Positions 2,312 through 28,390 of a stretch of 56,391 bases of DNA are shown here, piece by piece. How positions within the stretch are numbered: the stretch's first letter is position 1; each line of letters begins with the position of its first letter. Below the pieces are notes generated by a model, which was given only the letters and a program-made list of their open reading frames with translations, ran no database searches and had not been told where the DNA came from. This DNA is from a virus (taxonomy: Duplodnaviria; Caudoviricetes). The stretch lies in IMG/VR virus record IMGVR_UViG_3300023274_000003, positions 1 to 56,391 of that record; one strand, written 5' to 3'. The translations under genes and the position numbers were made by a program.

Positions 2312-2400
2312 AAAAACCTCGCCTATCCGCTGTACGAGAGCATCAAGGCAAGGCTTTAATATTATTGGTTAAAAGATACTTATCTCGTACATAAGTCTTT
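2312..2400 (-). ncRNA. Kissing-loop two-hairpin RNA/leader, copy 1
   Basis: Hairpin loops GUACGAG (2384-2390) and CUCGUAC (2332-2338) are complementary; second hairpin ends in U-tract. Confidence 0.65.
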
Positions 2401-2699
2401 TTTCGGACGTTCAAATGATTACTTCATGTTAAAAATGATTTAGATGGAAAATAGATGTTTATCTAAATTGTACTTGAATAAACAAACTTAAAAACTATTT
2501 TTGAGACTTGCAAATAAAGTTGTCCACAGTACACTACTCTATTTTAGATAAAACCTGATTAGCCCATTGAACCCAATTCTTCATTTCTTTTATAGATTCT
2601 TTTGGAAATTCGTATTCATCACTATTGAGTAGTGCCATTAATGTTTCGTTTTGTTCAGATAAGGCTTTCTTTACTATAAATATTTCCTCTTCTGTAAAC

Positions 2700-2978
2700 T
2701 CAAACATTCTCTATTGATTTACAATGAGCAATATTTTTTAGCATAAAAGAAATTTCCTTCTCTAGTTCATCAAGTCTCAATGGAACAATATTTGCAATTC
2801 TGGTATCCGCATTCTCTGTCATTGGGTGAAAGTCAACCCGACACCAATAGGAGTAATTACCAAGAGAATCTAAGAAGTTTTTAACGAGCTTATCCCTTAC
2901 ATCATCTGATTCGGTTTGCTCAATCGTGATTACAGGCGAGGGAGAGCCTATCACGTCAATTGTGATTTTACTTTTCAT
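2700..2978 (-). CDS. Hypothetical protein
   Basis: 92-aa ORF downstream of TATTTTTG promoter box (3027-3034). Confidence 0.65.
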   Translation of the reverse strand: MKSKITIDVIGSPSPVITIEQTESDDVRDKLVKNFLDSLGNYSYWCRVDFHPMTENADTRIANIVPLRLDELEKEISFMLKNIAHCKSIENV

Positions 2979-3154
2979 TGTATTGTTGTTTTACCTAATT
3001 GCCTGAATTGGTCAACTGGCTTACAACAAAAATATGAATAAAAAATATACTTTCCTACCAAAACTTATCCACATACAATTTGCAAAACCCGACAAAATAA
3101 AAAAACCTCAAAGAAATATTCTAAGAGGTTTCTAAATCCATTGCGATGCCCTAA

Positions 3155-3547
3155 TTATATCAACCCTGATATGTTTTTCCAGTTCTCAATATCTGCATGA
3201 GTAACTTTGTCTTTGTTTATCTCTGAAATGTTTTTTGTGCGTTCTTCACTTAGTAGATAGTTTCCGAAACTTACCAATTCGTTTCGGTCTAATTCTATAC
3301 TTTCAGTTTCTGGTGTAATGTAAATATAGTGATAACCTGCGGGATTGTTTGAGATATGACTTACAGAACCTCTGTCTTGCATTGGGCCATGATCGGGAAT
3401 GATTTTTAGATTAACCGTTTTCTCTGACCATACCCTTGTGATAATTGCAGGAATATAACCCGTGTTGTGGTTGCTTTTCGCTACTTCGTCAGTAGGATTG
3501 GGCATAAATTGGACAATCTGCCCAACGTATGGATTGATTTTTAACAT
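3155..3547 (-). CDS. Hypothetical phage protein
   Basis: 130-aa ORF followed by terminator-like hairpin near 3100-3133. Confidence 0.7.
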   Translation of the reverse strand: MLKINPYVGQIVQFMPNPTDEVAKSNHNTGYIPAIITRVWSEKTVNLKIIPDHGPMQDRGSVSHISNNPAGYHYIYITPETESIELDRNELVSFGNYLLSEERTKNISEINKDKVTHADIENWKNISGLI

Positions 3548-3616
3548 AATCGTATAATTTTAAAGTTTTAAAAGATTGAAATTAATGAGTTTTGTTGTAA
3601 AATCCAAGCAAAACAA

Positions 3617-3624
3617 TATCTTTG
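3617..3624 (+). promoter_or_regulatory. Bacteroidota -7 promoter box TATCTTTG for membrane cassette
   Basis: TAnnTTTG consensus 18 nt before ATG 3643. Confidence 0.6.
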
Positions 3625-3642
3625 TAAAGAATTATCAAACCA

Positions 3643-3939
3643 ATGGCAAAGAAGAAAAGAGTAGACATGGCCGACGGATGGGATGCCCCTTGGTGGGTAT
3701 ACCTTTCTTTAAAGCAATCAAACATTGCGGTTGGTACTTTATTGGGCTTTGCTATTGGGCAGGGGTCTTTTTTTGGCGCAACAGGTGTATTAATACTTAC
3801 GCTACTTAGAGACCAGTTTCAAGGACTATTAAGAGAAAAAGCCAAGAATGATACGCCGCCTGATTCGACAACATTCAGAAGTACAGAGGTAGGCCCTAAG
3901 GGTACAACAGAATCAAGTGTGACAACAGGAAACGAATGA
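3643..3939 (+). CDS. Small membrane protein
   Basis: Gly-rich hydrophobic hairpin; ATGA overlap with next gene. Confidence 0.65.
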   Translation: MAKKKRVDMADGWDAPWWVYLSLKQSNIAVGTLLGFAIGQGSFFGATGVLILTLLRDQFQGLLREKAKNDTPPDSTTFRSTEVGPKGTTESSVTTGNE

Positions 3940-4448
3940 AGCAGCTATTTTATGGCATGATGGAGGACATGGCTGATTTCTTCGCAGAGATTAAGCTGAA
4001 TCTATTTTATGCCTCACTTAGCTATATTATAGGGGAATATCTGGTACATCTTAAAAATGCTATTACTACCTATATTTTTGACGATTTCGCATTTGGTGTA
4101 TTCTTTTGTATCATGTTGCTTTGCGATGCCTTCGCCTATGTAAACCGAATGAGGATAGACAACAAAGGGCTAAAAATGATACACATCAAAGACGGCGGAG
4201 AAAGGTTTTTTGACAACGTAATTAAGTTTGGTATAGGATTGATAGCGATTCATGGCCTAGCGAACTACACAGTGAACGGGGTTAAAAACGAATGGTTTAC
4301 TAATGTACCCAACTGGTTTTTTGCTTTCTGTATGCTAAAGGTAGCTACAAGTGTATTTAAGAACTTAGGCATAGACATTTCTAAATATCTGGACGTAGTA
4401 AGTGAAAAGTTCAAAGATTTCAAAGTAAAGCCGGACGATAAAGAGTAA
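3936..4448 (+). CDS. Holin-like multi-TM protein (resembles phage holin family 4)
   Basis: 3-4 TM segments, ..D....K......H.....S.FKNL.G spacing and charged C-terminus. Confidence 0.5.
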   Translation: MKQLFYGMMEDMADFFAEIKLNLFYASLSYIIGEYLVHLKNAITTYIFDDFAFGVFFCIMLLCDAFAYVNRMRIDNKGLKMIHIKDGGERFFDNVIKFGIGLIAIHGLANYTVNGVKNEWFTNVPNWFFAFCMLKVATSVFKNLGIDISKYLDVVSEKFKDFKVKPDDKE

Positions 4449-4465
4449 CTAAATTTTAAAGCAAT

Positions 4466-4630
4466 ATGAACAAGCACCTAATTGAAGAAAAGCTGAGGCA
4501 GATTGAGCAGCTTACTAAGGAAATCCGAGAGGAATTGAAAAAGGACAGCCCGCAAACATTAGACGGCGACGATGGCGGCGCACCGCATCCGCCTACCCCT
4601 CCGCCACCTCCTCCGCCACCAAGGGGATAA
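4466..4630 (+). CDS. 54-aa peptide with C-terminal poly-proline (not in ORF track)
   Basis: MNKHLIEEKLRQIEQLTKEIREELKKDSPQTLDGDDGGAPHPPTPPPPPPPPRG; TAATG overlap with next gene. Confidence 0.75.
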   Translation: MNKHLIEEKLRQIEQLTKEIREELKKDSPQTLDGDDGGAPHPPTPPPPPPPPRG

Positions 4631-4986
4631 TGAAGCATTATTTAGTGCTGGCGTTAGCTTTTGTCGTGTACATGGCTAACGCCTTATTTGTAGCTTTTTT
4701 CTATTACGATTTTGAATGGCTACGGTCTGCTACATGGCTGGCGGATCACCTTTGGCAAGTGATTTTACCTTTGTATATTGCCTTAGAGTCAAAGTACAGG
4801 ACAATAAAGGCACTGGCTTATTATTGGGCTATCTTTGCTTTCTTTAGGTTTCTTTATACACTTTTTACTTATACTTTGAAACTGCCGATAATCTCCGAAA
4901 GATATTCTTATTTATTTATTCATTGGGTATTTATTGTCTCACTTGTGTACGGATTTATAAGGCTAATCTGGAAACCTAAAGTATAG
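4630..4986 (+). CDS. Four-TM membrane protein
   Basis: Four hydrophobic, aromatic-rich segments. Confidence 0.75.
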   Translation: MKHYLVLALAFVVYMANALFVAFFYYDFEWLRSATWLADHLWQVILPLYIALESKYRTIKALAYYWAIFAFFRFLYTLFTYTLKLPIISERYSYLFIHWVFIVSLVYGFIRLIWKPKV

Positions 4987-5065
4987 GTATTTTTACGTGT
5001 TTTGTATCTTTAACTAGGAAATAACAATTAAAGTTAATACTTTCGGTTTTTAACTTTATGCTGTT

Positions 5066-5350
5066 GTGGGACGAGTAGCTATCAATGTCATTTTGCTGAA
5101 CATATTAAAAGGATTAGAGCATACATTGTTTGTTTTCCTGATTGGCTTTTATGACTTCCTGCAAGCGCAATTAGCGTTAAGCATATCAGAGAAGAAAGAA
5201 TTAATATTGTTCGCCTGTGGGCTTATCTGGGGCTTATTCAGGATTGGCAGGGAGTGGGTAAAGACTGACCAGCAGCGAATAGAAAGAGACATTAAAAAAG
5301 AAGAACATCGTAAGCTTAAACACGAAAACGATATTTTAGAAGGCAAATAG
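5066..5350 (+). CDS. Small membrane protein, possible holin/antiholin
   Basis: Hydrophobic N-half, highly charged C-tail. Confidence 0.5.
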   Translation: MGRVAINVILLNILKGLEHTLFVFLIGFYDFLQAQLALSISEKKELILFACGLIWGLFRIGREWVKTDQQRIERDIKKEEHRKLKHENDILEGK

Positions 5351-5372
5351 TTTTTCATAGGGTTGAGATAGT

Positions 5373-5408
5373 AAAAGCCGATATGTATTGTATCGGCTTT
5401 ATTTTTTT
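5373..5408. terminator. Bidirectional intrinsic terminator
   Basis: AAAGCCGATA-loop-TATCGGCTTT between convergent genes. Confidence 0.75.
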
Positions 5409-5589
5409 ATACTTGCTGCATTCCTTTTTCTAAAATCAAAGTGCCGCACAACAAAACCTCTCTTAATAGTCTATTGTAATAATCTTGTGGTATCGTTATT
5501 TGTCCGTCTGATTTTTGATAAGCCCTTTTTGAATACTCTGCTACAATCTTTAGCCTTTCATCAAATCTGATAATTTCTTCTTGTGTCAT
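5407..5589 (-). CDS. Hypothetical protein
   Basis: Last ORF of minus-strand string. Confidence 0.55.
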   Translation of the reverse strand: MTQEEIIRFDERLKIVAEYSKRAYQKSDGQITIPQDYYNRLLREVLLCGTLILEKGMQQV

Positions 5590-5628
5590 TTTGTTCTAAT
5601 ATGTTTTTAAATATAGTTGATTAATTAT

Positions 5629-5961
5629 TTAAGAGTCTGCCCATATTCTAGCATTTGGGTAAATTTCGCAAGCCTCTAAATATTCTTTACAAAAACGAAT
5701 CAAGTCTTTTCTTTTACCCCATCCGTTAGTAGCATTAAACTTGTCATATTTTTCAGCATTGGATTCAAGTTCTAAAATGCCTTTTCTTAAAGGTGAAATC
5801 AAATCTTTAGCCGTTACGCTTTTACTTAACGTCTCTGGCCTCCAGAGGACATGATACAATTCGGAAACAATAGCCATATCAATTAAATTGTTTGTAATGT
5901 TTCCAGAATAGAGGACTTCATCATCAAAATCTACTCTAAATAAAGTTACGTCTAAGCTCAT
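5629..5961 (-). CDS. Conserved phage hypothetical protein
   Basis: MSLDVTL...NIT.NL..MA....LY..LW.P....NGWG pattern familiar from phage proteins. Confidence 0.7.
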   Translation of the reverse strand: MSLDVTLFRVDFDDEVLYSGNITNNLIDMAIVSELYHVLWRPETLSKSVTAKDLISPLRKGILELESNAEKYDKFNATNGWGKRKDLIRFCKEYLEACEIYPNARIWADS

Positions 5962-5974
5962 ATTCGTAGTTTAA

Positions 5975-6238
5975 TTATTTGTCTAATATTTTGAGTAAAG
6001 CGAAGAAATCTTCTTTTGAAGACGGAATAATAAACACTTCTTCTGGCTTGCCTTTCATGGGGACTACTTTCAAACGGCTATAAAGTGCCGGAATGGAAAT
6101 ATATTTATTGCTATTTTGGGGGTTCAAGAAAGTTTCTCTTCTTGTATAGCTATTAAAGGAGAGAGGTAAATATCCTTTTTGGCTCATATACTCCTTAACC
6201 CATTCTTCGGCTTGCTCTTTTGTAGCATATTTGTTCAT
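5975..6238 (-). CDS. Hypothetical protein
   Basis: ATGA overlap with upstream gene. Confidence 0.6.
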   Translation of the reverse strand: MNKYATKEQAEEWVKEYMSQKGYLPLSFNSYTRRETFLNPQNSNKYISIPALYSRLKVVPMKGKPEEVFIIPSSKEDFFALLKILDK

Positions 6239-6618
6239 TGCGTTATCGTGTTTATGTCGATGGCTTGACCGCTGGGGATTAAGTTAAAGACGTCGAAGTG
6301 TTTTGAAATCAAATACACAACAACATCGTATGGAAATTTATTAACAGGTTTCTTTCTAATAAACCCATCTAAAATATCATATTGTGTTAAACTGTAAATC
6401 TCCTTACATTCTTCTACTGTCAAGTCTTTCATTGGTCGGAGAATAGGCTTTATAACTACGTATCCCACCATTTTATTAACTCCTAATGCACTATTGATAG
6501 TAATTGTGTCGTTACTAGGGTATTCGTCAATAGATAATTCCAAAATCTGTATAGGCTCTCCTTCATGTATAAGCCTCAACCCATAAGGCAAGTAAACTAC
6601 TAAGTTTTCTAGTTTCAT
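6235..6618 (-). CDS. Conserved Bacteroidota phage hypothetical protein
   Basis: YLPYGL...KPILRPM.DL...L...HFDVFNLI..G.AIDINT pattern. Confidence 0.7.
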   Translation of the reverse strand: MKLENLVVYLPYGLRLIHEGEPIQILELSIDEYPSNDTITINSALGVNKMVGYVVIKPILRPMKDLTVEECKEIYSLTQYDILDGFIRKKPVNKFPYDVVVYLISKHFDVFNLIPSGQAIDINTITQ

Positions 6619-6644
6619 GTTGTTAGTTGGTTAATCTGCTTGAA

Positions 6645-7133
6645 TTAAATACCTAACTTTTCTTTAATTTTCTTATCGGCTTTTGCATTGATACGGTCTT
6701 CGATATTTTTATCGGTCAGTTGGTATTCAATTTTATCCGCAGCAGAGTTGATAGCATCAATAACTACTTTCATTGTAGAATTAATTTTAGACTCTGCGTT
6801 GGCAATGATTTGCGGTTTGTCTGACAAAAGTTCTGTAACGGTGTCGTTAATTACCTTCTTTATGTCAGAAGATATTTCTTTTGCTATTAAATCTTTTACT
6901 TCGTTTCTCAACTCCCATGCTTCGTAATGTCTATTTTTAGGTTTAAAAACAAGGAGTTGCATTTCCTCTTTAATCTTTGCGTCTACTATTTCTCGTGTTG
7001 TCTGATTAATAGTAGCCCCAAGCCATTTTTTAGCAAATGCTGCCGCAACGCTTTGACGAACATCAAATTCTATTTGTGAATCTCCATTTAAAAGACGTTC
7101 TAATGCTGCTAAACTGTTGATTTGAATTTTCAT
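6645..7133 (-). CDS. Hypothetical helical/coiled-coil protein
   Basis: Likely start MKIQIN at 7133, directly after kissing-loop copy 2. Confidence 0.7.
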   Translation of the reverse strand: MKIQINSLAALERLLNGDSQIEFDVRQSVAAAFAKKWLGATINQTTREIVDAKIKEEMQLLVFKPKNRHYEAWELRNEVKDLIAKEISSDIKKVINDTVTELLSDKPQIIANAESKINSTMKVVIDAINSAADKIEYQLTDKNIEDRINAKADKKIKEKLGI

Positions 7134-7146
7134 AGTATTATTAAAT

Positions 7147-7255
7147 AAAGAAACCAGTCCCAAAAGATGCGAGGCTTTCGAAACTGGTTCTTTGGATTTT
7201 GTCGGTTAAGACAATTTCTTGTATCTGCTCGCATTCAGATATTAACACAAATATA
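7147..7255 (-). ncRNA. Kissing-loop two-hairpin RNA/leader, copy 2 with promoter
   Basis: TATATTTG (7248-7255); loops containing AUGCGAG (7228-7234) and CUCGCAU (7167-7173). Confidence 0.65.
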
Positions 7256-7423
7256 CTCTTAATTCTTAATATTCCAAACCTTCTTTACGAAAGAATTGAT
7301 AAATAGTGGCAGGGTTTCTATTTAATAATACAGCTATTCTATTGCCTGTATATCCTTGAAAATATAGCTTAATGATTAAAAGTTTTTCTTCCTTTATCAT
7401 TCTGTAAGGTTTACCTTCTCTGG

Positions 7424-7768
7424 TCATTTTTGCATAAGTTCTGGATTGTCATAAATATTACCAACAATCGTGCAAGAGTCGGACAAAACAGCTTCTTGCA
7501 TTAAGTAGATTGCGTTTTCAAATTCAATCTCTATTAACTCTTTCCCGTCGCTCCACTTATCCACAATGTCACCTTCATAAATACGGTTTTCGCCTTTATC
7601 TTTTAATCCGATATATTGACCTACCGTTTCTGGATATACTTCATATTTAACTCCAGCATTAAACGTGCTGACTATGTAATATATACCACCGATGGTAATA
7701 GTTAAGCTACCAATAGCCCAACTTTCGTTTTCCTTTCTTTTACCTCTGAATTTAATTTCTCTTTTCAT
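7424..7768 (-). CDS. YopX family protein
   Basis: REIKFRGKR...W..GSL...PETVGQYIGLKDK....IYEGDIV...IVGNIYDNPEL. Confidence 0.9.
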   Translation of the reverse strand: MKREIKFRGKRKENESWAIGSLTITIGGIYYIVSTFNAGVKYEVYPETVGQYIGLKDKGENRIYEGDIVDKWSDGKELIEIEFENAIYLMQEAVLSDSCTIVGNIYDNPELMQK

Positions 7769-8003
7769 CTTGTATTTGTTGTTTAACTGTGGCGATTGCT
7801 TCCTTTAAAATCTTAATTCTTGCGTCCTTACCAGTTGGAAGTTGTTTTGAAGCTATTTCAAAAAGAACTATCAACTCTTCTGTAAAATCTAATTCGTGAA
7901 CATAAAGGAAATAATGATAATAACCCTGACAGATAACTCCACACCATTTTTCATAATCCGCTAAAGCTTGTTCATAAATCTCTAACTCCTGTTCTTTTGT
8001 CAT
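7752..8003 (-). CDS. Hypothetical protein
   Basis: ORF in gene string. Confidence 0.55.
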   Translation of the reverse strand: MTKEQELEIYEQALADYEKWCGVICQGYYHYFLYVHELDFTEELIVLFEIASKQLPTGKDARIKILKEAIATVKQQIQDEKRN

Positions 8004-8177
8004 TGCTTTAATAGGTTTTGTAGGTTTTTAATAAATTGTCTCAAACATATTCTACGTTCATAGAGTTGTACTTCTCTTGTTGAGCCAATTTGTAATTTGG
8101 CTATTTCTACGCCTAGTATTTTTATTTCCTGTTCGTAACTGTTAATGAGTTCTTTTATTTTATTTTCTGTCATGATT

Positions 8178-8363
8178 TTAATACTCGCTTAATGAATCTA
8201 ATATATTAGAAAATCTGCCTTTATTCTTTATGTCGTTTTCTATCCTAATACAAGCAAGAAAATCATTTTCTTGCTTCGCCTTTTCAAGTTCTAAAGTCTG
8301 TTCTATGATTTCTTTTCTATAAATATGAATAAATACCTCTATCTGTTTTTTTATTTTTCTCAT
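8178..8363 (-). CDS. Hypothetical protein
   Basis: ORF in gene string. Confidence 0.5.
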   Translation of the reverse strand: MRKIKKQIEVFIHIYRKEIIEQTLELEKAKQENDFLACIRIENDIKNKGRFSNILDSLSEY

Positions 8364-8376
8364 GTTTTTAATTATG

Positions 8377-8580
8377 TTAATAGTGCTTGCTGAATTGAAT
8401 TGCTTCTAGGTTACTGCCTACGGTGTCAAATGGTATTCTACAAATAGAATTTACAATTTTAGTTCGTTCCTCCTCGAACTCTTTAAAGTCTGAAATTGTA
8501 CCATTATCGCCAGCATTGTAAATAATAGAGGCTAGATATATTCTAATTGCTCTAACACGTTGCCTTTTAGTTAATTTCAT
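8377..8580 (-). CDS. Hypothetical protein
   Basis: ORF in gene string. Confidence 0.55.
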   Translation of the reverse strand: MKLTKRQRVRAIRIYLASIIYNAGDNGTISDFKEFEEERTKIVNSICRIPFDTVGSNLEAIQFSKHY

Positions 8581-8758
8581 TGTATTGAGTCTTTAAATTG
8601 TTTTATTGAAAGTATAGTATCGAAATTCTTTTCTTTTGCTACAACGTAATTGCCGTGTTTGTTGCAAGCGGATCGTTTTGATTCAAATAATCCACGACTA
8701 TCTGAAATTCTTCTGAGCCATCATTAAAGACAGCCCAGCTATAAGGGAGTTTGTTCAT
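8577..8758 (-). pseudogene. Frameshifted paralog of the N-terminal half of 18491..18940
   Basis: MNKLPYSWAVFNDGSEEFQIVVDYLNQ then, in another frame, FDTILSIKQF; compare MNTLPKTFGVLNDGSQLFK...FDSIITLEQF. Confidence 0.6.
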
Positions 8759-9393
8759 GTAAATAAATTTTCTTGTTTAATAATTGGAACATCGAATAAA
8801 GGCATGGCTATTTCTTTTTGAAACCTTGCGTTCCCATCCCTGAAGTAATCTTCATCTATTTCAAAGCCCCAGAAATCAAAGCCTTTTTTATAGGCAGCAA
8901 TACGGCTTGATTGGGAGCCTAAATGAGTGTCAAGGATTTTATCTCCAATTTTAGCATAATTTTTTATTAGCCAATCGTATAAAGCTCGAGGCTTCTGGGT
9001 TGGATGAATCTTGTTTTTTTCGTCTTGAACTGATTTTCTAAATATTTTATTCGCACCATCGAAAGATGTCCATGCAAAGTCGAACATTCCGAAACTTAGT
9101 GCTTCAGGTTGCATCTTATCCCAAATTACACAGTGCTTAGTTGGGGGAAGTGCGTAATAATTACCCCCCCAAATAATTTGATTTTTTGAAACTCTAAATA
9201 ATTCATCGAAGTAATTCATACTTATAGGCTCGTCGTCCCAGTTTTTGGCTTTTAATCCCTTATCTGTTACCAATCTTGGACTTTTTCCTATTCCTATTCC
9301 AAACTCTGGATCCACAATAGCCAAATCGAAAAACTTATCAGGGAATCTTTTCATGCCTTCGACACAATCTGAATTAAATACTTCGCTTATCAT
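8755..9393 (-). CDS. DNA N6-adenine/N4-cytosine methyltransferase (beta-type order), atypical motif IV
   Basis: DLAIVDPEFGIG, HPTQKP..LY.W, ILDTHLGS.SS, GFEID. Confidence 0.85.
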   Translation of the reverse strand: MISEVFNSDCVEGMKRFPDKFFDLAIVDPEFGIGIGKSPRLVTDKGLKAKNWDDEPISMNYFDELFRVSKNQIIWGGNYYALPPTKHCVIWDKMQPEALSFGMFDFAWTSFDGANKIFRKSVQDEKNKIHPTQKPRALYDWLIKNYAKIGDKILDTHLGSQSSRIAAYKKGFDFWGFEIDEDYFRDGNARFQKEIAMPLFDVPIIKQENLFT

Positions 9394-9426
9394 TATCTTA
9401 AAGATTTAGATGGTAAATTAAAATGG

Positions 9427-9618
9427 TTACTTAATAATAATTTCATTGCCCATAACTGGTTCAATCTGAATTGTGCATCTTTCTTGATGAAACTTATTTA
9501 TCACTATTTCACCAAACTTGTTTTCTGAAATTCTAAACTCTGAACCTAAGTCATTGTAAACTTTTAGATAGGTACATTCAACTGGTTCTTCTTGGGCTCT
9601 GTTAGTTTTGATTGTCAT
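9427..9618 (-). CDS. Hypothetical protein
   Basis: ORF in gene string. Confidence 0.5.
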   Translation of the reverse strand: MTIKTNRAQEEPVECTYLKVYNDLGSEFRISENKFGEIVINKFHQERCTIQIEPVMGNEIIIK

Positions 9619-9809
9619 TGTCTTAGTGATTTTGCATTTGATGGTAAAGTAATTACTTGCGCTTTTTGATTAACTTATAATACTCTTTGTCAATGTCTTG
9701 ACGAGATGTATTATCCATTATTACGTTCCAACCTTCTTTTAAAGGTTCTGAAATATGAGCCACATGGTAGGCTCTTTGTTTTGAGTTGTATTCTAATCTA
9801 AACATAGTT

Positions 9810-11264
9810 TTAAAAGTCAAATTCTACCGGTGCGACATTTGGAAAAGGATTCGATATAGGATGATGATAATTAATTACTTCATTAGGTTTATTTGCATAA
9901 AAGTTATTAGTGGGTAAATCGTGATACCATACAACCACATCTTTTTTGCCGTTTCGGTTCTTGGCAAAATCCCCTACCATGAGTTTCTTAGTTGATAATG
10001 TTTGAGGTTCGCCTTCTAGGTTTAAGTCTACGTATTCTAAGTCGTTATCCTCCGGCCTCCAAAGCATTAGCACTACGTCAGCATCGCTTTCTATATCTCC
10101 CGATCCTCTGAAATCTGCAATAGAGGGACGGCCGTTTCTTTTTTCTGCTTCACGGTTCAAAGAGGAAATAACTACAATAGGCATATTTAAAGATTTAGTT
10201 AATTTCTGTAACTTATCAGAACAATAAGTAACTGCCCGCATCACCTCTTTATATTCGGTGGGTATTTTTTGAATAAAGTCTATAAATATAACTTCCACCC
10301 CATACTTAGAAACCCATAATTGAGAAGTAGAAGAAATTTCTTCCATTGATTTCGGATTATCGTTATAATAAATAGGCAAGTCTTTCACTTTGGCGATAGC
10401 ATTCTGAACCTGGACTAGATTTTTCATATCTATTTCTTCCGGCACGAAAGAGTCGTTTGTGTAAAGACCTTCTAATTCACTTACCACCATTCTATTCGTA
10501 ATATCTTCGGCTGACATTTCTAAACTAAAACAACCTACGGCAATTCCTTCTTTACCCATTTCTTTCATCATAGCGGAAATCAAAGCAGATTTTCCAACAG
10601 AAGGTCTAGCACCTATGTAGACAAGTTTGTTTTGACCCCTCCTTAGTTTTAAACGAGAATCCAGGAAAGGAAAACCACAAGACATTTGCTTTGATTCTCT
10701 GGAGTTACCTAAATCCTTAATCGTCTGATTTAAGATTGAAAGATTCGTTTTTTGTCTGCCTCTAAAGATTGACTGACTAATTTTACTCACTCCTTCTATC
10801 TCATTAGAAAGTACTTCAAAAACGTCTGAAGTGTCATCAAATGCACTTTTAATAGTATCCTCTGCATTTTCAATCAAAGCACGTTTAACGGCTGTTTGCT
10901 GAACGATACGAGCATTATATTCATAGCTTGAATAAGAAACTTCACTTTCTTTTACTAATCTGAAAAGATACTGTACCCCTCCGACAAATTCAAGTTCTCC
11001 GTTTTGTCTTAAATCGTTCATTACACTAAGAGTGTCTACAGGCTCAAACTTAGATTTTAACCTTACGATTGCATTAAAAATCCTTTGGTTACAGTCTTTA
11101 TAAAACGCCTCTGCCTGTAAGATATTAAAAACAGATTCTATGATCTGAGGTGATGAAATCATTGCACCTATCACCGCTTCTTCTAGTTCTATGGCTTGCG
11201 GTGGTAATTTGCCGGAACTTAGAATTGATTGTTTTTCTAAAGGTTTTTTTGTTCTCTTATCCAT
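9810..11264 (-). CDS. dnaB: Replicative DnaB-family helicase
   Basis: PPQAIELEEAVIG N-domain; GARPSVGKS Walker A; FSLEMS; RGSGDIESDAD; AKNRNG. Confidence 0.95.
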   Translation of the reverse strand: MDKRTKKPLEKQSILSSGKLPPQAIELEEAVIGAMISSPQIIESVFNILQAEAFYKDCNQRIFNAIVRLKSKFEPVDTLSVMNDLRQNGELEFVGGVQYLFRLVKESEVSYSSYEYNARIVQQTAVKRALIENAEDTIKSAFDDTSDVFEVLSNEIEGVSKISQSIFRGRQKTNLSILNQTIKDLGNSRESKQMSCGFPFLDSRLKLRRGQNKLVYIGARPSVGKSALISAMMKEMGKEGIAVGCFSLEMSAEDITNRMVVSELEGLYTNDSFVPEEIDMKNLVQVQNAIAKVKDLPIYYNDNPKSMEEISSTSQLWVSKYGVEVIFIDFIQKIPTEYKEVMRAVTYCSDKLQKLTKSLNMPIVVISSLNREAEKRNGRPSIADFRGSGDIESDADVVLMLWRPEDNDLEYVDLNLEGEPQTLSTKKLMVGDFAKNRNGKKDVVVWYHDLPTNNFYANKPNEVINYHHPISNPFPNVAPVEFDF

Positions 11265-12096
11265 AGTTTTTAATTGAGGTTGATTTTGTCTTTACTTTTA
11301 GTTCTTTAGCGGCCCTTTTCTTGAAAGAGTTAAACACGTGCTGAATCTCATTAAATCCTTTGAACTTGTATTCGTTAAGTAATCCGTTCATGACATGGAA
11401 TAAGTCAGTTTTTAAGGCATTTTCGGAATTGTCACTTGATGAATAATCTTTTATAATTTTTAATTCTTGATAAAGTAGATTGAAACTACCCTCTATTTTC
11501 GATTTTAAAGTACCTAGAAACTGATTAGTATCATAAGGATATAGTTCGTATTCTACCCTTATTAAATCGCTTCTTACAGTGGCTATATTGTTAGCTAAGG
11601 TTACTATGTATTCTTCTGCATTTATTCTAGTAGGCATTCTTTCGTAATAGTATTCCTTATGAGTAAGAAAGAGACTTACGGATTCTTTATAATCTAAATC
11701 CTTATAAGAAGAAAGTTTTGGCGATGACGACGAATCACTATCATTGTCATTATCACTATCTTTTTCATTCTTACTTTCACTATCATTATCGGCTTTCTGT
11801 GGGTTTTGTTGGGTTCGAGAAAAACCGACTGGGTTATTTGGGTTTTGTTGGGTTATTGGTCTGCCTCCTTTTTCTCCATTCTTTTTATTTCTTTCTACTA
11901 CTGCATCGTACTTTTGATTGTCTCTATCAAATTGATTTTTGAAAGAAGTAAATATAATGTCTGTAAATTGGTCTAGGTTCAATTCTTTTCCTCTATTATA
12001 GTCAATGATAGCCTGAAACAAATTAGCCTTCATTTCAACCGTCAATTTGTCTACAATATCCAAGCTATCTAAATGCAGTATAAAGGATTTCTTCAT
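11257..12096 (-). CDS. Phage replication initiator (DUF6291-like N-terminus)
   Basis: KSFILHLD..L....LFQAIIDY...NGEKGGRP then low-complexity linker; directly upstream of DnaB. Confidence 0.75.
   Translation of the reverse strand: MKKSFILHLDSLDIVDKLTVEMKANLFQAIIDYNRGKELNLDQFTDIIFTSFKNQFDRDNQKYDAVVERNKKNGEKGGRPITQQNPNNPVGFSRTQQNPQKADNDSESKNEKDSDNDNDSDSSSSPKLSSYKDLDYKESVSLFLTHKEYYYERMPTRINAEEYIVTLANNIATVRSDLIRVEYELYPYDTNQFLGTLKSKIEGSFNLLYQELKIIKDYSSSDNSENALKTDLFHVMNGLLNEYKFKGFNEIQHVFNSFKKRAAKELKVKTKSTSIKNYG
11730..11860. repeat. Iteron-like repeats inside initiator gene (candidate origin)
   Basis: TGGGTTTTGTTGGGTT at 11800 and 11839; five TGGGTT at ~10-bp phase; TCACTATC x3. Confidence 0.55.
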
Positions 12097-12152
12097 TGTT
12101 TAATTAATCAAAAGTCAAAATCAATGTTTTTATAGTTGTGTGGATAAGTAGA

Positions 12153-17083: not shown

Positions 17084-17087
17084 AAAT

Positions 17088-17188
17088 AAAAAAAAGATTT
17101 GGCTTTCGAGGTCGTGGTCTCTACTTGCCAAATCTTTAAGATTAATATCTTTTTACTTGCAATCCACGACAATTGCGATACTAAATTA
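17088..17188 (-). ncRNA. Kissing-loop two-hairpin RNA/leader, copy 3
   Basis: Loops containing GUCGUGG (17164-17170) and CCACGAC (17111-17117); long U-tract; TAATTTAG promoter-like box upstream. Confidence 0.65.
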
Positions 17189-17206
17189 AGAGAATAATTG
17201 ATAAAA

Positions 17207-18490: not shown

Positions 18491-18940
18491 TTAAATGAGT
18501 TCTTTTTTAGTTACTAGCTTATAAAGCATCTTAAGTTCTTCTACTGTATGTATAACTATATCAGCCTTTGGGCAAATCCAGCCATTAGGTAATATATTTA
18601 ACCAGGGTTTAAAAATATATTTTATTGAAAACGTTTTATTACAATAGGTTCTATAAAAAGGCGTTTCTCCTGTTTTCTCGAACCCATAATCTACAATATT
18701 GTCTTCTGTTAGTATTTGTTTCTCTTTTGTCATTTCTATGAATTGCTCTAAAGTGATTATTGAATCAAATATTGTTGGGTCTTGCGAGTGAGTTACTCCA
18801 TCAAAATCGATTCCATAGTGCCACCCTTTCATGCACCCCGTTAAATCAGCCTGTTTGCTATTAAGGAAAGGTATTACTGTATCTTTAAACAATTGACTGC
18901 CATCGTTAAGGACTCCGAATGTTTTTGGTAAGGTGTTCAT
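18491..18940 (-). CDS. Hypothetical protein
   Basis: 149-aa ORF with a degenerate paralog at 8577-8758. Confidence 0.7.
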   Translation of the reverse strand: MNTLPKTFGVLNDGSQLFKDTVIPFLNSKQADLTGCMKGWHYGIDFDGVTHSQDPTIFDSIITLEQFIEMTKEKQILTEDNIVDYGFEKTGETPFYRTYCNKTFSIKYIFKPWLNILPNGWICPKADIVIHTVEELKMLYKLVTKKELI

Positions 18941-18944
18941 AGTT

Positions 18945-19352
18945 TTATTTGTCGTTCATTGAGTGTAAAGAAGGATATCCAGAAAATGTTCCATTGGCAT
19001 AACTACATCCTAAGCAAGTGCCTACGCCTTTTTTTACTGGAGTAGAACAATCCAAACATCCACCGTGAAAGATTTTCTTTTCTTTGGATTCGGGATAAGT
19101 TTCTATAAAAATAAGATCTTCCTGTCTTTCTGTTTCACGGTTCAAATTTCTTAGTGAATCGTCTGAGGTTTTTCTAATAGACGATAGTTTTGATAGTATT
19201 TTTAAATATTCTGCCCTTATCCTATTAGATTCTATACTTAATTTCTCGTATTCTTTTAAAAGCCTAAGATGTTCTTTTTGCTGTTGTTCCATTGCTTTGT
19301 TTACGGACTTAGAAACAAGTTCGTTTATAATTCTTAATAGGTATTCTTTCAT
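18945..19352 (-). CDS. Coiled-coil protein with C-terminal CxxC..CxxC
   Basis: CLDC...CLGC. Confidence 0.65.
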   Translation of the reverse strand: MKEYLLRIINELVSKSVNKAMEQQQKEHLRLLKEYEKLSIESNRIRAEYLKILSKLSSIRKTSDDSLRNLNRETERQEDLIFIETYPESKEKKIFHGGCLDCSTPVKKGVGTCLGCSYANGTFSGYPSLHSMNDK

Positions 19353-19397
19353 TTATTTTCAATATTAATGGTTATTACACTAAACTCTGATTCTTCA

Positions 19398-19832
19398 TTA
19401 CTCTTTTTGAATGAGTGCTTCTATTTCTGAAAGATAGGGAATAGGGGGATTGTAGGGTTTGCAATATTTCCATCCATACAAATTACTGCCACTGGGATTA
19501 TGATGACAATAGTACTTTCCATTTAGAAAAACTTCAAATACTTTCTCTTCCCAGTCGTACCCATCTTCAAAATCTCTTACCAAAACTTTTTCCTTTTGTT
19601 TTGGTGTCCATGTAGTAGGGGTTTTAATGGTGAAGTTTGCTTCAATAAAGTCAAAGAAAAATCTATCTTCCTTGCCTGCTAACGTAACTTTGACGCAATT
19701 TCCAAATACTTTTTCTACTTCAAATCTTCGTCCTTTCTCGATAATCATATCTGGTTTTCCTTCGTTGTTTTGGATAGTCCAGTCGGTATTTAGTATCAGT
19801 ATGTCCCCTATTTTGATGTTTTGAGTATTCAT
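19398..19832 (-). CDS. Hypothetical protein
   Basis: KVLVRD....W...F......Y......W..C.PY pattern. Confidence 0.65.
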   Translation of the reverse strand: MNTQNIKIGDILILNTDWTIQNNEGKPDMIIEKGRRFEVEKVFGNCVKVTLAGKEDRFFFDFIEANFTIKTPTTWTPKQKEKVLVRDFEDGYDWEEKVFEVFLNGKYYCHHNPSGSNLYGWKYCKPYNPPIPYLSEIEALIQKE

Positions 19833-19836
19833 AATA

Positions 19837-21577
19837 TTAATAGTTAAACAGTTGAGTAATTAAAATATAAAGTAACCCGGTAATTAGTAAGGATTTAACG
19901 GCGAACCTCAATACCTTGTAATATTTTGCTTCCATCTTTTGAAAGAACTTTTGAGTTTTTGACTTGGTTAAGGAGTTTAGAAAATCATCTATACTCGTTT
20001 CTTTATAGTCCCATTTGATGTTTTTATTCAAAGAATCAACGGCTTTCTTTGCTCTGAATAGATTTGTTGTAGTTGGTTTCATATTCTTTATTTGTTGCTC
20101 GTAGTAGTTCATTTGATTAAATCTTTTAATTCTTGTTCCCATTGTTCAACTAATCCATACTCTTTCATTGTAATGAAGTCCCAATTTTCATACCTTTCGA
20201 TAGCACCTTTTAGCTTTATTACCCTATCTATCTTCTCTTCTGTAGAAGGAAAATAAGGAATTTCTAAATTCTCAAGCCAGAACCATCTTGGGCAAATGCC
20301 AATAGGCGGTTTAAATACGCTGAAGTAATTCATTTGATAAAGTTATTAAAATCTGTTTCGTTTAATTCTATTATGTTTGTGATTGTACCTGTATCTTCCG
20401 ACAAGAAAGACTTTTCTTCTATTAACTTTTCAGTTAAACTTTTGTTGGGGTACTCATTCTGTACTAAAGTAAGTAGTACGCATTTACCGCCAAGTGTGTT
20501 GTATTTATAAAATACTATAAAATATCTCATGATTCTTCTTGATTAATGATTGTCCGATAGTTTCTATACGTCATAATACAATTACCTAGTAAGCAAGGTA
20601 AAAGGATACACCAGGCTAAGAACTTTTCAATAAAAGGGTAGCCTGTAAAGCATACGGCAATGCTCATAAAGAACAGAACAATTGTATAGAATCCAAACCA
20701 AAGATAATTATCTTCAATTACTCTCTGTTGGGGTGTTTTCATTTTCAGTATTCCGGTTTAAATGATAGTTTGATTTCTTCGATGTCTACATTTTCTTCTA
20801 TGTCTTCAATCAATGCTTTAGTGAGTATTTCTCGATCACTAAACTTAAACCCATGTACCTTAATCTCAATATACACTCTATGATAAAACATAAGCGTTTT
20901 TAATGCTTCAAATGTTTCTTCTTTGGGGGTTAGTTCTTTCTTTGTCATGTTTTTGGACGTTTGAAGATGGTTAAATGTATCGATAATTAGGATTCCATTC
21001 AGAACTATTGGAAACGCTCATTCTTTTTTGGTGAAAATCCTCTTTAAAATCTGTAATAAATGGTGTCAAAGGCAACCCTAAAAGCTTTTGAACAGTTCTG
21101 ATTCTTTTCCTGTTTTCCATTAATGCGTAACAAGTGCTACACGTACTCATGTTTTTGCTTTTGTTTATTTGATAGTAATAGAAAGGTTTCTTGTGTGCCT
21201 CATCCTGAGCGTCGCAATGCCAAAAATCATGGCCTTTTTCAAACAATGCAGTTTGACAACTTTCTAACATTTTCAAACAATCTTTTAAGATTCTCTTAGT
21301 TTTCTTGTCCATGATTTACATTTTATCGTCTGACGACGGGGGTTAGTTATTCTGAGACAATATTTATATTTTCAATAACATCATCAAGGTTGCCAATCAT
21401 TTCGTCTAATGAAGAAACGTTTTCTTCCATCTTTTGACCTCTTTCGCTAGATTGTAGGTTTTCTGATAGATTATAGAAAGATTCTTCTTCTTCATCTTTT
21501 ACTGACTCTATTATCTGTTTAGCATCTTCTATTAGAGAGATAGCTTTTTCTAATTCTTTTCTTCTTGATTTGTTCAT
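19837..21577 (-). other. String of seven small early hypothetical genes (19837-20142, 20109-20333, 20330-20530, 20527-20742, 20745-20948, 20971-21312, 21347-21577)
   Basis: Tightly packed co-directional ORFs, several with ATGA overlaps. Confidence 0.65.
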
Positions 21578-21601
21578 TGTTTTTATATTAGTTAATGTTA
21601 G

Positions 21602-21685
21602 TTGTCACGAAGGGAATCGAACCCAAAACTTACACCTGTATTTATATCCGACTCGAACGGAGAGTTTACACCAAGTACGTGACAA
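21602..21685 (-). ncRNA. tRNA-like RNA with two T-loop hairpins and no anticodon arm
   Basis: 8-bp closing stem TTGTCACG/CGTGACAA; TCCG-TTCGAGT-CGGA and GGG-TTCGATT-CCC. Confidence 0.5.
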
Positions 21686-22931: not shown

Positions 22932-22989
22932 TGTCTTAGTTATTTTATTGTTCCGTTTAACTGATACAAATATACAAGGATAAAATTAA

Positions 22990-23024: not shown

Positions 23025-23112
23025 TATAATTATTTTTGAAATTATTTTTAAGTAGTAAGAATATTTATATATTTGCTTTGAAAAGAAGTGAAGTTTAATT
23101 AAAAAGTATCTT

Positions 23113-25652: not shown

Positions 25653-25653
25653 A

Positions 25654-27057
25654 ATGACAATAAAAGACACGGTTAATCGGTGGCTGGGTAACAACCAGAA
25701 AGCAATCACATTGCCTAATCATGCCGCAGTACCTTCGCAGCTACTGTGGCACTTAATGGGGGGCGTTCCTGTTATCTGGTACACAGGCAATACAGACACC
25801 TATCTACGCAAAGGCTTTGAAGGAAACCACGTAGTTTTTACTATTGCCGACTGGTGTGCCAGAAAACTAGCCGCCATTCCTCCTATCCTCTACGATACCA
25901 AAGACGAAGGAGCCGCCAAAGACTATAAGTTTCTTAGAAAACACCTAAGTATTGAGAATATCGCACAGGCGCAGAAAATAAAAGCCCGTGCATTCGTTGA
26001 GGTAAGAGAGCATAAGATTCTTGACGTGTTGATGCAGCCAAACGAATTGATGCCTTACGACGAATTTATGTACGGATGGTATATCTTTAAAAAGTTTGTA
26101 GGCAAAGCCGATATACAAGGAATTGCCACTACGGGGGTAAATCCAGGAATAGCTAACTTATACTTACTCCCATCTAATTACATACAGGCAGTCGCAGGGC
26201 AGGGGCTAACTGTTATCGATCACTTTATTGATACCCGTCAGCCTTCAGTTCATATTCCGACCGAGCAGATACTGGAGATCAGAAACTTTTCAGCCAATTA
26301 TCAATCAGCAGGGGCGCAGTTACAAGGTATGTCAGTCATGCAGGCGGCCTCTAAACTTCTTACCAAGTCCAACGACTCGTTATCTGCGCAGGCCGAAACT
26401 TTGCAGAATAGAGGGGCAAGGGGTATATTGGCACCTAATTTGTCAGGGGCAGACCTGGCAGGCTTACAACTGCCTAGTGGGGCGACAATGGATACTATGA
26501 ACGCCGAAATGCGTAAACGACTGTCAGAAGCGGGTAATCAGGGAGTTATTACGCACTCTATCCCTATGAGTTATATAAGCATAGGAATGACTTCAGTAGA
26601 AATGCAGACCTTAGAGTCTGACAAACTAGATAATGCGGCTTGGGCCTCTTTATTCCATGTAGATAGCCGTGTAGTGCTTAATGACCATCAGAGCAGCACC
26701 AAAGACAATATGCAAACGGCCAGACTTGATTCTATCTTAGACGGGGTGTTACCTGAAGCGGAAGCGTTCAAGAACGGAATAAACGCATGGATGCTACCTA
26801 CTTACGATAATAAAGGCAGATACTATTTCGACATGGACTATACTGTTTTGCCGGAAATACAAAGGCAGTTACGGGACACAGCCAAAGAAATGTCAGATGC
26901 GGGCATCTTTACCCCTAATGAAATAAGGGAGGTCTGGAAGTACGATGCTTACCCACACGCTAACGCTAATAAGATACTAGTCGCTACTACCAAACAGTTG
27001 CTCGATGACATGGACAGTTCATTGCCGGACGTTGAAAACACAGGAGACTATCAATGA
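25654..27057 (+). CDS. Portal protein (HK97-like)
   Basis: Position after TerL, 467 aa, QGMS...RGIL...FTPNEIRE. Confidence 0.85.
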   Translation: MTIKDTVNRWLGNNQKAITLPNHAAVPSQLLWHLMGGVPVIWYTGNTDTYLRKGFEGNHVVFTIADWCARKLAAIPPILYDTKDEGAAKDYKFLRKHLSIENIAQAQKIKARAFVEVREHKILDVLMQPNELMPYDEFMYGWYIFKKFVGKADIQGIATTGVNPGIANLYLLPSNYIQAVAGQGLTVIDHFIDTRQPSVHIPTEQILEIRNFSANYQSAGAQLQGMSVMQAASKLLTKSNDSLSAQAETLQNRGARGILAPNLSGADLAGLQLPSGATMDTMNAEMRKRLSEAGNQGVITHSIPMSYISIGMTSVEMQTLESDKLDNAAWASLFHVDSRVVLNDHQSSTKDNMQTARLDSILDGVLPEAEAFKNGINAWMLPTYDNKGRYYFDMDYTVLPEIQRQLRDTAKEMSDAGIFTPNEIREVWKYDAYPHANANKILVATTKQLLDDMDSSLPDVENTGDYQ

Positions 27058-27266
27058 AATCCTTAATACTACTTATACATAAATATCTTTCTTTGCTTTG
27101 TATAGGGTTAGGTGTAATTCATGTTATAATCACTATATTTAGCTTACTATTTAAAGTGAATGATGCCTTTTTAAAGACTCCTATGGGGCTGGTTATTCAG
27201 GGATTTATCTATGCTTATGCTATATCATTTATTTTAACTAATCTATCAAGGGATGACCAAAGATGA
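27054..27266 (+). CDS. Small two-TM membrane protein
   Basis: Two hydrophobic helices; ATGA overlap with portal stop. Confidence 0.6.
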   Translation: MKSLILLIHKYLSLLCIGLGVIHVIITIFSLLFKVNDAFLKTPMGLVIQGFIYAYAISFILTNLSRDDQR

Positions 27267-28092
27267 AAAAATAGCCTATGCAAAGAAATACCATACATTC
27301 AACAGTAAAATTGAAAAGTATGGCAGGAAGATATTCTTTAAAGCACTGAAAGAACAAACCAGCAGCTTACTGGATTATTTAAAACGAGGCGGTCAGTTGT
27401 ATGAAAGTATTGTAGATATATTTATTACACCCGATACCATTAAGCAGGCTCTATCGGGATTCTATCGAAGCGTATCGCCTAAGTTCTTATCTTTCTTTCA
27501 ACAGCCCTTGCAGCCTACCCCTAGTAGTATTCTTTCTTTCAGGGATGCACAGAAACTAGCTGAACTTTCCCGCATTGCCGAATCGGCCGAAGTATTACAA
27601 AAAGTAACCAATATTACCGATACTACCCGCAGGATTATTAAAGAAACCATTAGTAACGGATTTCTGCAAGGCAAACCGCAAAGGGAAATAATTAAAGAAA
27701 TTAACACCAAGACCAAAGGGCAGATTATATTAAAAAGGGCTACCTTGATAGCCAGAACCGAAAGCACTTATATCTCATCTAAAGCCGCAGAGGTAAACGT
27801 GATGTTTTCACCTTTTGCGATGCAGAAAGAATGGATACCTATTGTTGATATGAAAACCCGTGATACTCACCTACATATGCTATCAAAGAAACCAGTACCT
27901 AAAGAACAGCCGTTTAACGTCGGCGGCGTACCTATGAAATATCCAGGCGATCCGGCAGGAGGTGCGGCCAATTGCTGTAACTGCAGGTGCTGCATCGTCT
28001 TTTCCCCTATTACGCAGGATGAAACTTTATCCACAGAAACTACCGAAGGAAATATTTTAGTAAATCAGATAGTAGAGAACCTTTTAAGATGA
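27253..28092 (+). CDS. Minor head protein (Mu gpF/SPP1 gp7-like)
   Basis: RATLIARTES...KEW....D..TR.TH...F.VGG..M.YPGDP......NCRC. Confidence 0.9.
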   Translation: MTKDEKIAYAKKYHTFNSKIEKYGRKIFFKALKEQTSSLLDYLKRGGQLYESIVDIFITPDTIKQALSGFYRSVSPKFLSFFQQPLQPTPSSILSFRDAQKLAELSRIAESAEVLQKVTNITDTTRRIIKETISNGFLQGKPQREIIKEINTKTKGQIILKRATLIARTESTYISSKAAEVNVMFSPFAMQKEWIPIVDMKTRDTHLHMLSKKPVPKEQPFNVGGVPMKYPGDPAGGAANCCNCRCCIVFSPITQDETLSTETTEGNILVNQIVENLLR

Positions 28093-28286
28093 TTACACAC
28101 CCTTACCCTTTTAAAGAACAGCCTTGTTGTGAGGAGTTCAAAGAACTGGTACAGACCAGAGAAATAGACCAGATGTCTAACCAGTGGACGATGTACACCA
28201 CCAATAAGGATAATTACGGCCCACGTTACCAAAGAATTAGTTATTGTCCCTTTTGCGGGGATAAGTTAGAGGAAATTAAAAACTAA
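28089..28286 (+). CDS. Small Cys-containing protein
   Basis: PCCE...ISYCPFCG.KL. Confidence 0.65.
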   Translation: MITHPYPFKEQPCCEEFKELVQTREIDQMSNQWTMYTTNKDNYGPRYQRISYCPFCGDKLEEIKN

Positions 28287-28290
28287 TTAC

Positions 28291-28390
28291 TATATTTGTT
28301 TAACAGTTCATTTGAAAAAGGTAGGATGTTTTCAAATGGAAATAATCACCTTTTAAGCCTTGCCAAATCCTACTGGTCAAGGCTTTTTAT
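28291..28390 (+). ncRNA. Kissing-loop two-hairpin RNA, copy 4 (stand-alone)
   Basis: TATATTTG (28291-28298); loops containing GUAGGAU (28321-28327) and AUCCUAC (28367-28373); U-tract; no co-directional downstream gene. Confidence 0.65.

Follow-up and report, generated by a model that had tools for sequence, protein, structure and literature searches.

Predicted phage RNA elements in which the loop of a 5' hairpin is complementary to the loop of a terminator-like hairpin

The window analysed here, a linear DNA of 56,391 nt that makes up the IMG/VR virus record IMGVR_UViG_3300023274_000003 (estimated completeness 72%), carries four elements (E1 to E4) in which one hairpin is followed by a terminator-like hairpin whose loop is complementary to the loop of the first. 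These elements raise the question whether the complementary loops are a selected feature of an RNA and, if so, what such an RNA might do. Comparison with related phages establishes, at the level of sequence, a family of promoter-proximal units of approximately 85-95 nt, each ending in a predicted strong terminator and folded through a predicted loop-loop helix that is under selection. They look like an undescribed family of structured phage RNAs.

Architecture of the four elements

On the transcribed strand, each element consists of a 5' hairpin (H1; loop of 7-10 nt), an A/U-rich linker of 14-31 nt and a T-tailed second hairpin (H2), whose apical loop (7-8 nt) contains the exact reverse complement of seven loop-1 bases in E2, E3 and E4 and of nine in E1. 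E1 (2312..2396, minus strand) comprises H1 (2378-2396; a 6-bp stem with the 7-nt loop GTACGAG at 2384-2390), a 20-nt A/U-rich linker (2358-2377) and H2 (2313-2357; a 12-bp outer stem, an internal loop, a 4-bp inner stem and the 7-nt apical loop CTCGTAC at 2332-2338), followed by TTTTTCATTTTA with its T-tail. E2 (7143..7255, minus strand) begins with a promoter-like box, TATATTTG (7248-7255), and continues with H1 (7222-7241; pairing segment ATGCGAG at 7228-7234), a linker that includes a small middle hairpin (7191-7221), H2 (7151-7190; pairing segment CTCGCAT at 7167-7173) and a T-rich tail. E3 (17084..17188, minus strand) has the box TAATTTAG (17181-17188), H1 (17159-17176; pairing segment GTCGTGG at 17164-17170), a linker (17138-17158), H2 (17093-17137; pairing segment CCACGAC at 17111-17117) and a T8 tract. 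E4 (28291..28390, plus strand) has the box TATATTTG (28291-28298), H1 (28307-28340; pairing segment GTAGGAT at 28321-28327), a linker (28341-28354), H2 (28355-28385; pairing segment ATCCTAC at 28367-28373) and T5. Reading of the sequences and checking of the coordinates placed all four elements and their loop pairs where a preliminary description of this DNA had put them, and loop 2 is in every case the exact complement of loop 1, as it had stated.

Both segments lie within hairpin loops and are Watson-Crick complementary over 7-9 nt in all four elements, which is the arrangement of a kissing loop. The geometry of loop 2 is uniform: the seven paired bases either fill the loop (E1) or come after one unpaired 5' base (E2, E3, E4). 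Folding z-scores of the four RNAs against shuffled sequences range from -3.0 to -4.4, and the predicted fold recovers H1 and H2 for E1 to E3; in the minimum-energy fold of E4 a competing pairing replaces H1, the 12-bp stem of which came from a hairpin scan. Back-of-the-envelope geometry indicates that a rod of about 25-27 bp needs a linker of roughly at least 12-14 nt, and the linkers in the window are 14-31 nt long. The codes also proved distinct, as had been claimed: the computed energies of cognate loop duplexes are -10.3 to -12.4 kcal/mol, versus +0.3 to -6.9 kcal/mol for non-cognate duplexes.

The proposal that the four share one architecture without sharing sequence was correct as to architecture, whereas the unrelatedness of sequence did not hold entirely: E1 and E4 have the H2 arm AAGCCTTGCC in common, and the loops fall in a common frame (see below). 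Comparison of the linkers of E1 to E4 revealed nothing clear in common. An AUG inside loop 1 of E2 opens a frame of 34 codons (7131-7234, minus strand) that runs through the whole element to a stop in an ATGA overlapping the next start codon; the other elements have no such frame. A leader peptide was rejected as a general explanation, E3 having no AUG and the AUG of the L069-type leader family described below being followed directly by UGA (read by eye).

TAnnTTTG is the -7 box consensus of the Bacteroidota housekeeping promoter. The preliminary description gave such a box to all four elements; exact matches directly upstream are confined to E2 and E4, the box of E3 has one mismatch, and E1 has no box of this type within 80 nt. 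The window overall contains 84 copies versus 71 expected, i.e. no enrichment, and TATATTTG boxes at 13174-13181, 22967-22974 and 23068-23075 are not followed by a kissing-loop leader. Another unit (54814-54949, minus strand) has a TATATTTG box (54942-54949), approximately 120 nt without an open reading frame (ORF) and a strong T-tailed hairpin (54814-54846), with no clear loop-loop complementarity and a fold z-score no stronger than -1.0; possibly it gives rise to a different kind of small RNA.

The description of hairpin 2 as terminator-like was borne out: all four H2 hairpins have the form of an intrinsic terminator, a G/C-containing stem-loop followed by a T-rich tail (a U-tract in the RNA). 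That of E2 is the top-ranked terminator-like site in a consensus scan, which misses those of E1 and E3 owing to their internal loops. G.U pairs occur in the H2 stems (four of the 16 pairs in E2; two of the 12 outer and one of the four inner pairs in E1) and would be C.A mismatches on the other strand; the structure is thus specific to the strand given, which points to RNA rather than DNA.

Loop complementarity in the window exceeds chance. A strict scan of both strands (H1 with a stem of 5 bp or more and a 6-10 nt loop; 5-50 nt between the hairpins; a T-tailed H2 with a stem of 7 bp or more; seven or more complementary loop bases) returns exactly E1 to E4 and nothing else. Complementarity of at least 7 nt was found in 18 of the 158 adjacent hairpin/terminator pairs in the window (unclustered; these correspond to four loci), versus 69 of 23,818 non-cognate loop combinations (0.29%; approximately 0.46 expected). 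When the T-tail filter was removed and at least three G/C were required in the match, the window still yielded only E1 to E4, all four T-tailed; 20 dinucleotide shuffles of the window gave zero to three matches each (mean 0.5), and 366 kb of unrelated phage loci gave three matches, none of them T-tailed. A 10-bp T-tailed hairpin at 4650-4683 (plus strand), inside an ORF at 4630-4986, has a 14-nt loop that includes TTGTCGTG, the same eight bases as loop 1 of E3, and could also pair with the terminator loop of E3; such non-cognate matches are about as numerous as expected by chance.

Covariation of the loops in related phages

The terminase of the window retrieved 80 IMG/VR loci, which together with the genome of phage FpV9 made 866 kb for scanning. 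The strict scan gave nine matches, of which eight contained G/C and lay within the terminase loci and one, A/T-only, lay in FpV9; the whole records of five relatives and relaxed scans yielded further elements. After curation there are 21 distinct loop codes: four in the window, one in G001, three each in G002 and G003, one each in L003, L065, L066 and the GC-rich locus L116 (8 nt of complementarity), and six in a single orthologous leader family, the L069 type. Promoter boxes recur among them: TAnnTTTG or TAnnTTTA is found 2-12 nt before H1 in E2, E4, G001, the three elements of G003, L065, L066 and the L069 family, and a box with one mismatch precedes H1 in E3, G002_b, G002_c and L003. Transcription of the units probably starts from these boxes.

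The L069-type family was found by a pattern search that used only its H2 stem, which retrieved 15 members in 15 loci together with seven unrelated terminator types. Fourteen of the 15 leaders have at least seven perfectly matched upstream bases, and the fifteenth (L133) reaches seven if one G.U is counted; the seven unrelated terminators share the stem, and their complementarity to upstream sequence is limited to 3-6 nt. Likewise, among the matches listed for the H1 stem of G002_b and G002_c, three of 119 random instances reach 7 nt and none of these three lies within a terminator loop.

An alignment (A2) of 12 distinct L069-type orthologues contains six loop alleles: AUACCAG/CUGGUAU; GUAGGAG/CUCCUAC; GUAGCAGA/UCUGCUAC; GUGCCAG/CUGGUAC, with one G.U; GGUCGUAGC/GCUACGACC; and GGUGGUG/CACCACC. 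Five of the seven loop-loop pairs vary on both sides and 100% of the cells are paired; the H2 stem, unlike the loop-loop helix, is nearly invariant. None of 500 shuffles of A2 attained the observed values, and pairing falls to 28-44% when the partner is slid by 1-3 columns. Two paralogues located 780 nt apart on one contig, G002_b and G002_c, differ by one compensated pair (GUUGGAG/CUCCAAC versus GUAGGAG/CUCCUAC). The loop-loop pairing suggested in the preliminary description is kept, in these orthologues and paralogues, through compensatory change, and such comparisons establish the predicted helix as selected.

A covariance model built from the L069-type family without the loop pairing matched seven non-training places at E <0.05, six of which have at least 7 nt of loop complementarity: the L023 element, L116, E4, G003_b, G002_b and G003_c. 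The seventh (L106, 1452-1537) is without loop complementarity. The same check, as applied to the window, favoured E4 (E 1e-4 in one search and 3.7e-5 in another) and failed for the others, E1 and E3 not being retrieved and E2 appearing only at E 9.6; common descent of all four copies in the window is therefore not demonstrated. Megablast of positions 1-25000 of the window against a phage collection gave no match; single-protein scans for orthologous loci of the window elements gave zero, one and one distant loci; 17 loci with distant homologues of the protein downstream of E2 had no upstream element; a metagenome scan with the gene adjoining E4 gave two short, distant contigs without an element; and three Flavobacteriales genome loci around related terminases had none. 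No RNA sequencing run was listed for positions 1800-7500, and the contigs of two DNA runs aligned to positions 1-20000 were either identical to the window (from its possible source) or did not extend over the elements.

The loop codes are not free 7-mers but follow a frame, GU-NNN-AG versus CU-NNN-AC. In a hand tally of the 21 codes (with the register chosen where complementarity exceeds 7 nt, and with codes that are not independent, six being from one family and three from another), the pyrimidine-type loop starts with C in 18 codes and has U next in 17; after three free positions come A (position 6) and C (position 7), each in 19 codes. U2 and A6 are common to both loops, and G-C pairs close the helix. 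The frame resembles a tRNA anticodon loop at positions 1, 2 and 6, which suits a reading in which the loops address a third partner of that kind, as a T-box-like sensor or a decoy for anticodon nucleases, with loop 2 (CU-NNN-AC) resembling the anticodon loop and loop 1 its specifier. We consider this scarcely likely. Of 28 distinct tRNAs from two Flavobacteriales genomes (partial sets), 25 have A and only two have C at position 38, whereas the elements have C, and no loop code equals any of the anticodon loops sampled, the best agreement being six of seven (tRNA-Trp); moreover, H1 and H2 have exchanged loop types in L065 and G001, and U2, A6 and terminal G-C pairs would equally suit a fast, stable kissing pair. 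Work on antisense RNAs has shown that U-turn-like loops pair fast. Because 25 of the 28 sampled tRNAs have A where the elements have C, the frame is read as a preference for a U-turn-like, fast-pairing loop and not as tRNA mimicry.

Without the T-tail filter, a scan of 824 kb of related loci gave nine matches, eight of them on the transcribed strand, GC-containing and all with a T-tailed second hairpin; the ninth is the mirror image of one of these. Since eight of eight transcribed-strand matches end in a T-tailed hairpin although none was required to, the link to a terminator is part of the motif. This obligate tie to T-tailed terminators, together with the promoter boxes before most elements, also speaks against the view that the inverted 7-mers arose by chance or act in the DNA as protein-binding or recombination sites. 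Each loop is indeed a 7-mer between inverted repeats, formally like the core site of a recombinase. The scan, shuffle, non-cognate and random-stem controls speak against chance, the G.U pairs make the stems strand-specific, and the stems differ between H1 and H2 and among elements, leaving no common protein site; a DNA-level recombination site was rejected on these last two grounds, and the view as a whole is very improbable.

Possible roles: termination gate, small RNA or stabiliser

E1 precedes the start codon (2295-2297) of a MazG-like pyrophosphatase gene, the product of which matches a PHROG pyrophosphatase at 8.8e-40; E2 precedes the ATG (7131-7133) of a gene for a 162-aa protein with no assigned function; and E3 precedes the ATG (17081-17083) of a NUMOD4-HNH endonuclease gene. 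In most elements, a co-oriented ATG follows H2 by 7-34 nt. The downstream genes of the relatives encode two more NUMOD4-HNH endonucleases, an antirepressor (ANT/KilAC), a DUF6291 protein, an MT-A70 methylase, a primase (BT4734-like N-terminal domain and PriCT_2) and several unknown proteins. The combination of promoter, element and NUMOD4-HNH gene recurs in E3, L066 and G001, with HNH proteins that are only 35-38% identical. In the L069 family, a strong terminator (a 10-bp GC-rich stem and T7-T8) stands between a consensus promoter and the primase, DUF6291 or methylase gene, so these genes would need read-through. Both major alleles of the L069-type leader occur in front of four different genes; judging from these leaders, the loop code does not address the downstream gene, since the same allele precedes different genes.

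We favour, with a probability of roughly 0.45, the reading of the unit as a termination gate close to the promoter, which would set how much transcription reads through into the next gene; the main argument is that nothing but these terminators stands between consensus promoters and the replication and endonuclease genes. Such a unit, at the head of a gene, would comprise a Bacteroidota-type promoter, H1, a spacer of 14-31 nt often with a small middle hairpin, and the intrinsic terminator H2; the loops of H1 and H2 (7-8 nt) would pair in a 7-bp intramolecular kissing complex, stacking both hairpins into one rod. Most transcripts would stop at H2 as an RNA of approximately 85-95 nt, and a set fraction would read through downstream. 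Contact of the folded H1 loop with the nascent H2 loop would tune the speed or the stability of terminator closure, and the private code of each copy would keep this contact in cis.

Several points weigh against a gate. E1 lacks a recognizable box, and the four elements of the window have no orthologues in the sequences searched, so that the evidence of covariation is that of related phages. An alternative, antiterminator fold was not found, and pairing uses the loop of the terminator rather than its stem, such that help or hindrance to termination is not obvious. Since phage genomes are compact, a nearby downstream gene is to be expected anyway and argues only weakly for a leader. E4, as the preliminary description had recognized, has no downstream gene, the next co-oriented start being at 29702 (approximately 1.3 kb away), and the L023 element (in the stretch 13581-13764) starts 5 nt after a tRNA-Met gene, without a promoter box of its own; the gene-less context of the one and the tRNA-Met adjacency of the other fit a stand-alone stable RNA better than a leader. 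These two elements are syntenic, both being positioned after the head-morphogenesis gene. E4 faces a block of ORFs on the opposite strand (28402-29634, minus strand; one with a PHROG match of unknown function) that lies between the head-morphogenesis and head-protease genes.

On account of E4 and the tRNA-adjacent L023 copy, the chief rival of the gate is a serious one, although we put it well short of even odds: the units may be stand-alone small RNA genes, of which the terminated RNA of approximately 90 nt is the product (trans-acting, decoy or scaffold), the kissing complex giving a compact, nuclease-resistant rod and the next genes being incidental. E4 runs from promoter to terminator and is followed by no co-oriented gene, and the L023 element, directly after tRNA-Met, resembles the small stable RNAs of phage tRNA clusters; the strong consensus promoter boxes and strong terminators suit such genes, as does the spacer of the L069 family, which is better conserved than H1, as expected of a functional single-stranded segment. 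However, no seed-like segment is kept across families (the spacers of E1 to E4 have no clear common sequence), the association with HNH genes recurs across homologues only distantly alike, and units head replication operons without any other visible promoter.

The occurrence of one leader, in both major alleles, before four different genes is also what would be expected of a 5' untranslated region that stabilizes or insulates a read-through mRNA, the rod shielding the 5' end from RNases and preventing the leader from pairing with the coding sequence. This would suit a mosaic genome with mobile cassettes, and the start codon, after the T-tract, falls within sequence predicted to be unstructured. 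Nevertheless, a canonical strong terminator would be a costly insulator, E4 has no mRNA to protect, and no reason is given for a T-tract in every case; we consider this reading improbable.

A more ambitious form of the termination gate, which is speculative and rather unlikely to hold in full, would make the units natural, protein-free, addressable termination switches: H1 would catch the nascent terminator loop by a U-turn-framed 7-bp kiss, the variable core would be a private address, and the terminated RNA could also kiss its own leader in trans. The presence of six alleles on one otherwise conserved leader would fit this picture. If it were true, read-through of each gene would depend on the dose of its own leader RNA, and the units would resemble the copy-control circuits of plasmids, with both partners on the same strand, and would diversify as incompatibility groups do.

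Known RNA systems, the phage and its host

In keeping with the earlier statement that the elements belong to no named RNA family, Rfam 15 gave no match in the window at the gathering threshold. Around E1, a relaxed search (E values as high as 10) yields a single overlapping family, isrJ (16.9 bits versus a gathering score of 37; E 8.5), and in five related loci Rfam found only tRNAs and two sub-threshold matches, located elsewhere than the elements. No description of the motif was found in the literature searched, mostly at the level of abstracts.

The closest comparisons are with leaders controlled by RNA. In pT181 and pIP501, an antisense RNA from the opposite strand switches the leader between antiterminator and terminator folds. 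As is proposed here, a leader hairpin loop kisses, an intrinsic terminator lies just before the start codon, and the loop sequence sets specificity, giving orthogonal units; the partner there is a separate countertranscript, whereas here both loops are on one RNA and the second is the terminator's own loop. By the TAnnTTTG consensus alone, no promoter for a countertranscript of the pT181 type was found on the opposite strand inside the four elements (2312-2400, 7147-7255, 17088-17188 and 28291-28390). Engineered pT181 attenuators exist (PMC3753616). At PR'-tR' of lambda and Stx phages, as outlined in PMC7547250, transcription from a constitutive promoter soon terminates, yielding a short RNA (6S RNA, StxS), except where antitermination intervenes. 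A strong promoter, a short terminated RNA (a by-product that can itself be a regulatory small RNA) and genes needing read-through are features in common. PR'-tR' differs in relying on Q protein at a DNA site, in occurring once per phage and in having no loop-loop pairing, whereas here there are four units per genome, each with a predicted kissing complex. No antiterminator for the kissing-loop units was identified.

Other systems share parts of the architecture. In the loop-loop complexes of ColE1 (RNA I, RNA II and Rop), 7-nt loops pair from end to end, and single base changes create new specificities. Both traits are points of likeness; the ColE1 complexes are intermolecular, form between transcripts of opposite strands and control replication priming. 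The guanidine-II (mini-ykkC) riboswitch also has two hairpins, a variable linker and a loop-loop contact in a 5' leader, and needs conserved ACGR tetraloops and a ligand, whereas the loops described here are 7-10 nt long, variable, Watson-Crick paired and without a shared ACGR, and have no Rfam match. In phage P4 (CI RNA, seqA/seqC) and in P1 and P7 (c4 RNAs), a small RNA derived from the leader pairs with its own transcript, causing early termination, and heteroimmune relatives differ by compensated changes. These are likewise phage leader RNAs that pair with segments of the same transcript; their pairings are longer and not from loop to terminator loop, the RNA arises by processing and not by termination, and each phage has a single system. 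The put element of HK022, a leader RNA of two hairpins, needs no protein to act on RNA polymerase, and the pRNA of phi29 has covarying complementary loops; put is without a terminator or loop pairing, the loops of pRNA pair between molecules to form a packaging ring, and neither has an Rfam match in the window. None of the systems compared is known to pair the loop of a 5' hairpin with that of the terminator itself on the same strand.

The genome in which the elements are found is organized in a long leftward block of small early genes and replication genes (DnaB-type helicase, RecT, methylase, DUF6291) and a rightward block of packaging and structural genes (terminase, portal, head morphogenesis, protease). 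The terminase DNA is approximately 70% identical to that of Flavobacterium psychrophilum phages over 15% of the query; no close relative was found in a cultured-phage collection. The host is very probably a member of the Flavobacteriales, because the nearest protein relatives among species genomes are those of a Flavobacterium metagenome-assembled genome (MAG; 67%), Chishuiella and a Flavobacteriales MAG. The early region also contains a tRNA-Ser gene (anticodon CGA; 21601-21684, minus strand) and a TnpB-type gene (15272-16384, plus strand; OrfB_IS605, Cas12f1-like TNB and HTH_OrfB_IS605 domains) that is opposite in strand to its neighbours and adjoins the NUMOD4-HNH gene, with a TATATTTG box (15275-15282) overlapping its start. 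A single ORF of 4053 codons (38415-50576, plus strand) lies in the structural block. At 4582-4620, where several other contigs from the source run join with differing flanks, the sequence reads as a CCN/CCT codon repeat and is therefore a low-complexity coding sequence common to other organisms.

The semi-conserved frame with a free core of 3-5 nt constitutes a natural set of orthogonal kissing pairs, such as RNA engineers now select in vitro. If pairing tunes an intrinsic terminator through its loop, termination would be controlled outside the usual model of stem competition by an antiterminator. Gene regulation in Bacteroidota phages is poorly known, and neither Rfam nor the literature searched contains an RNA control element shaped like this. 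Small, numerous, easily recognized and backed by clean covariation, the elements precede replication genes, homing endonucleases and an antirepressor; they thus provide a direct way into the control of early and middle genes in a large group of uncultured phages.

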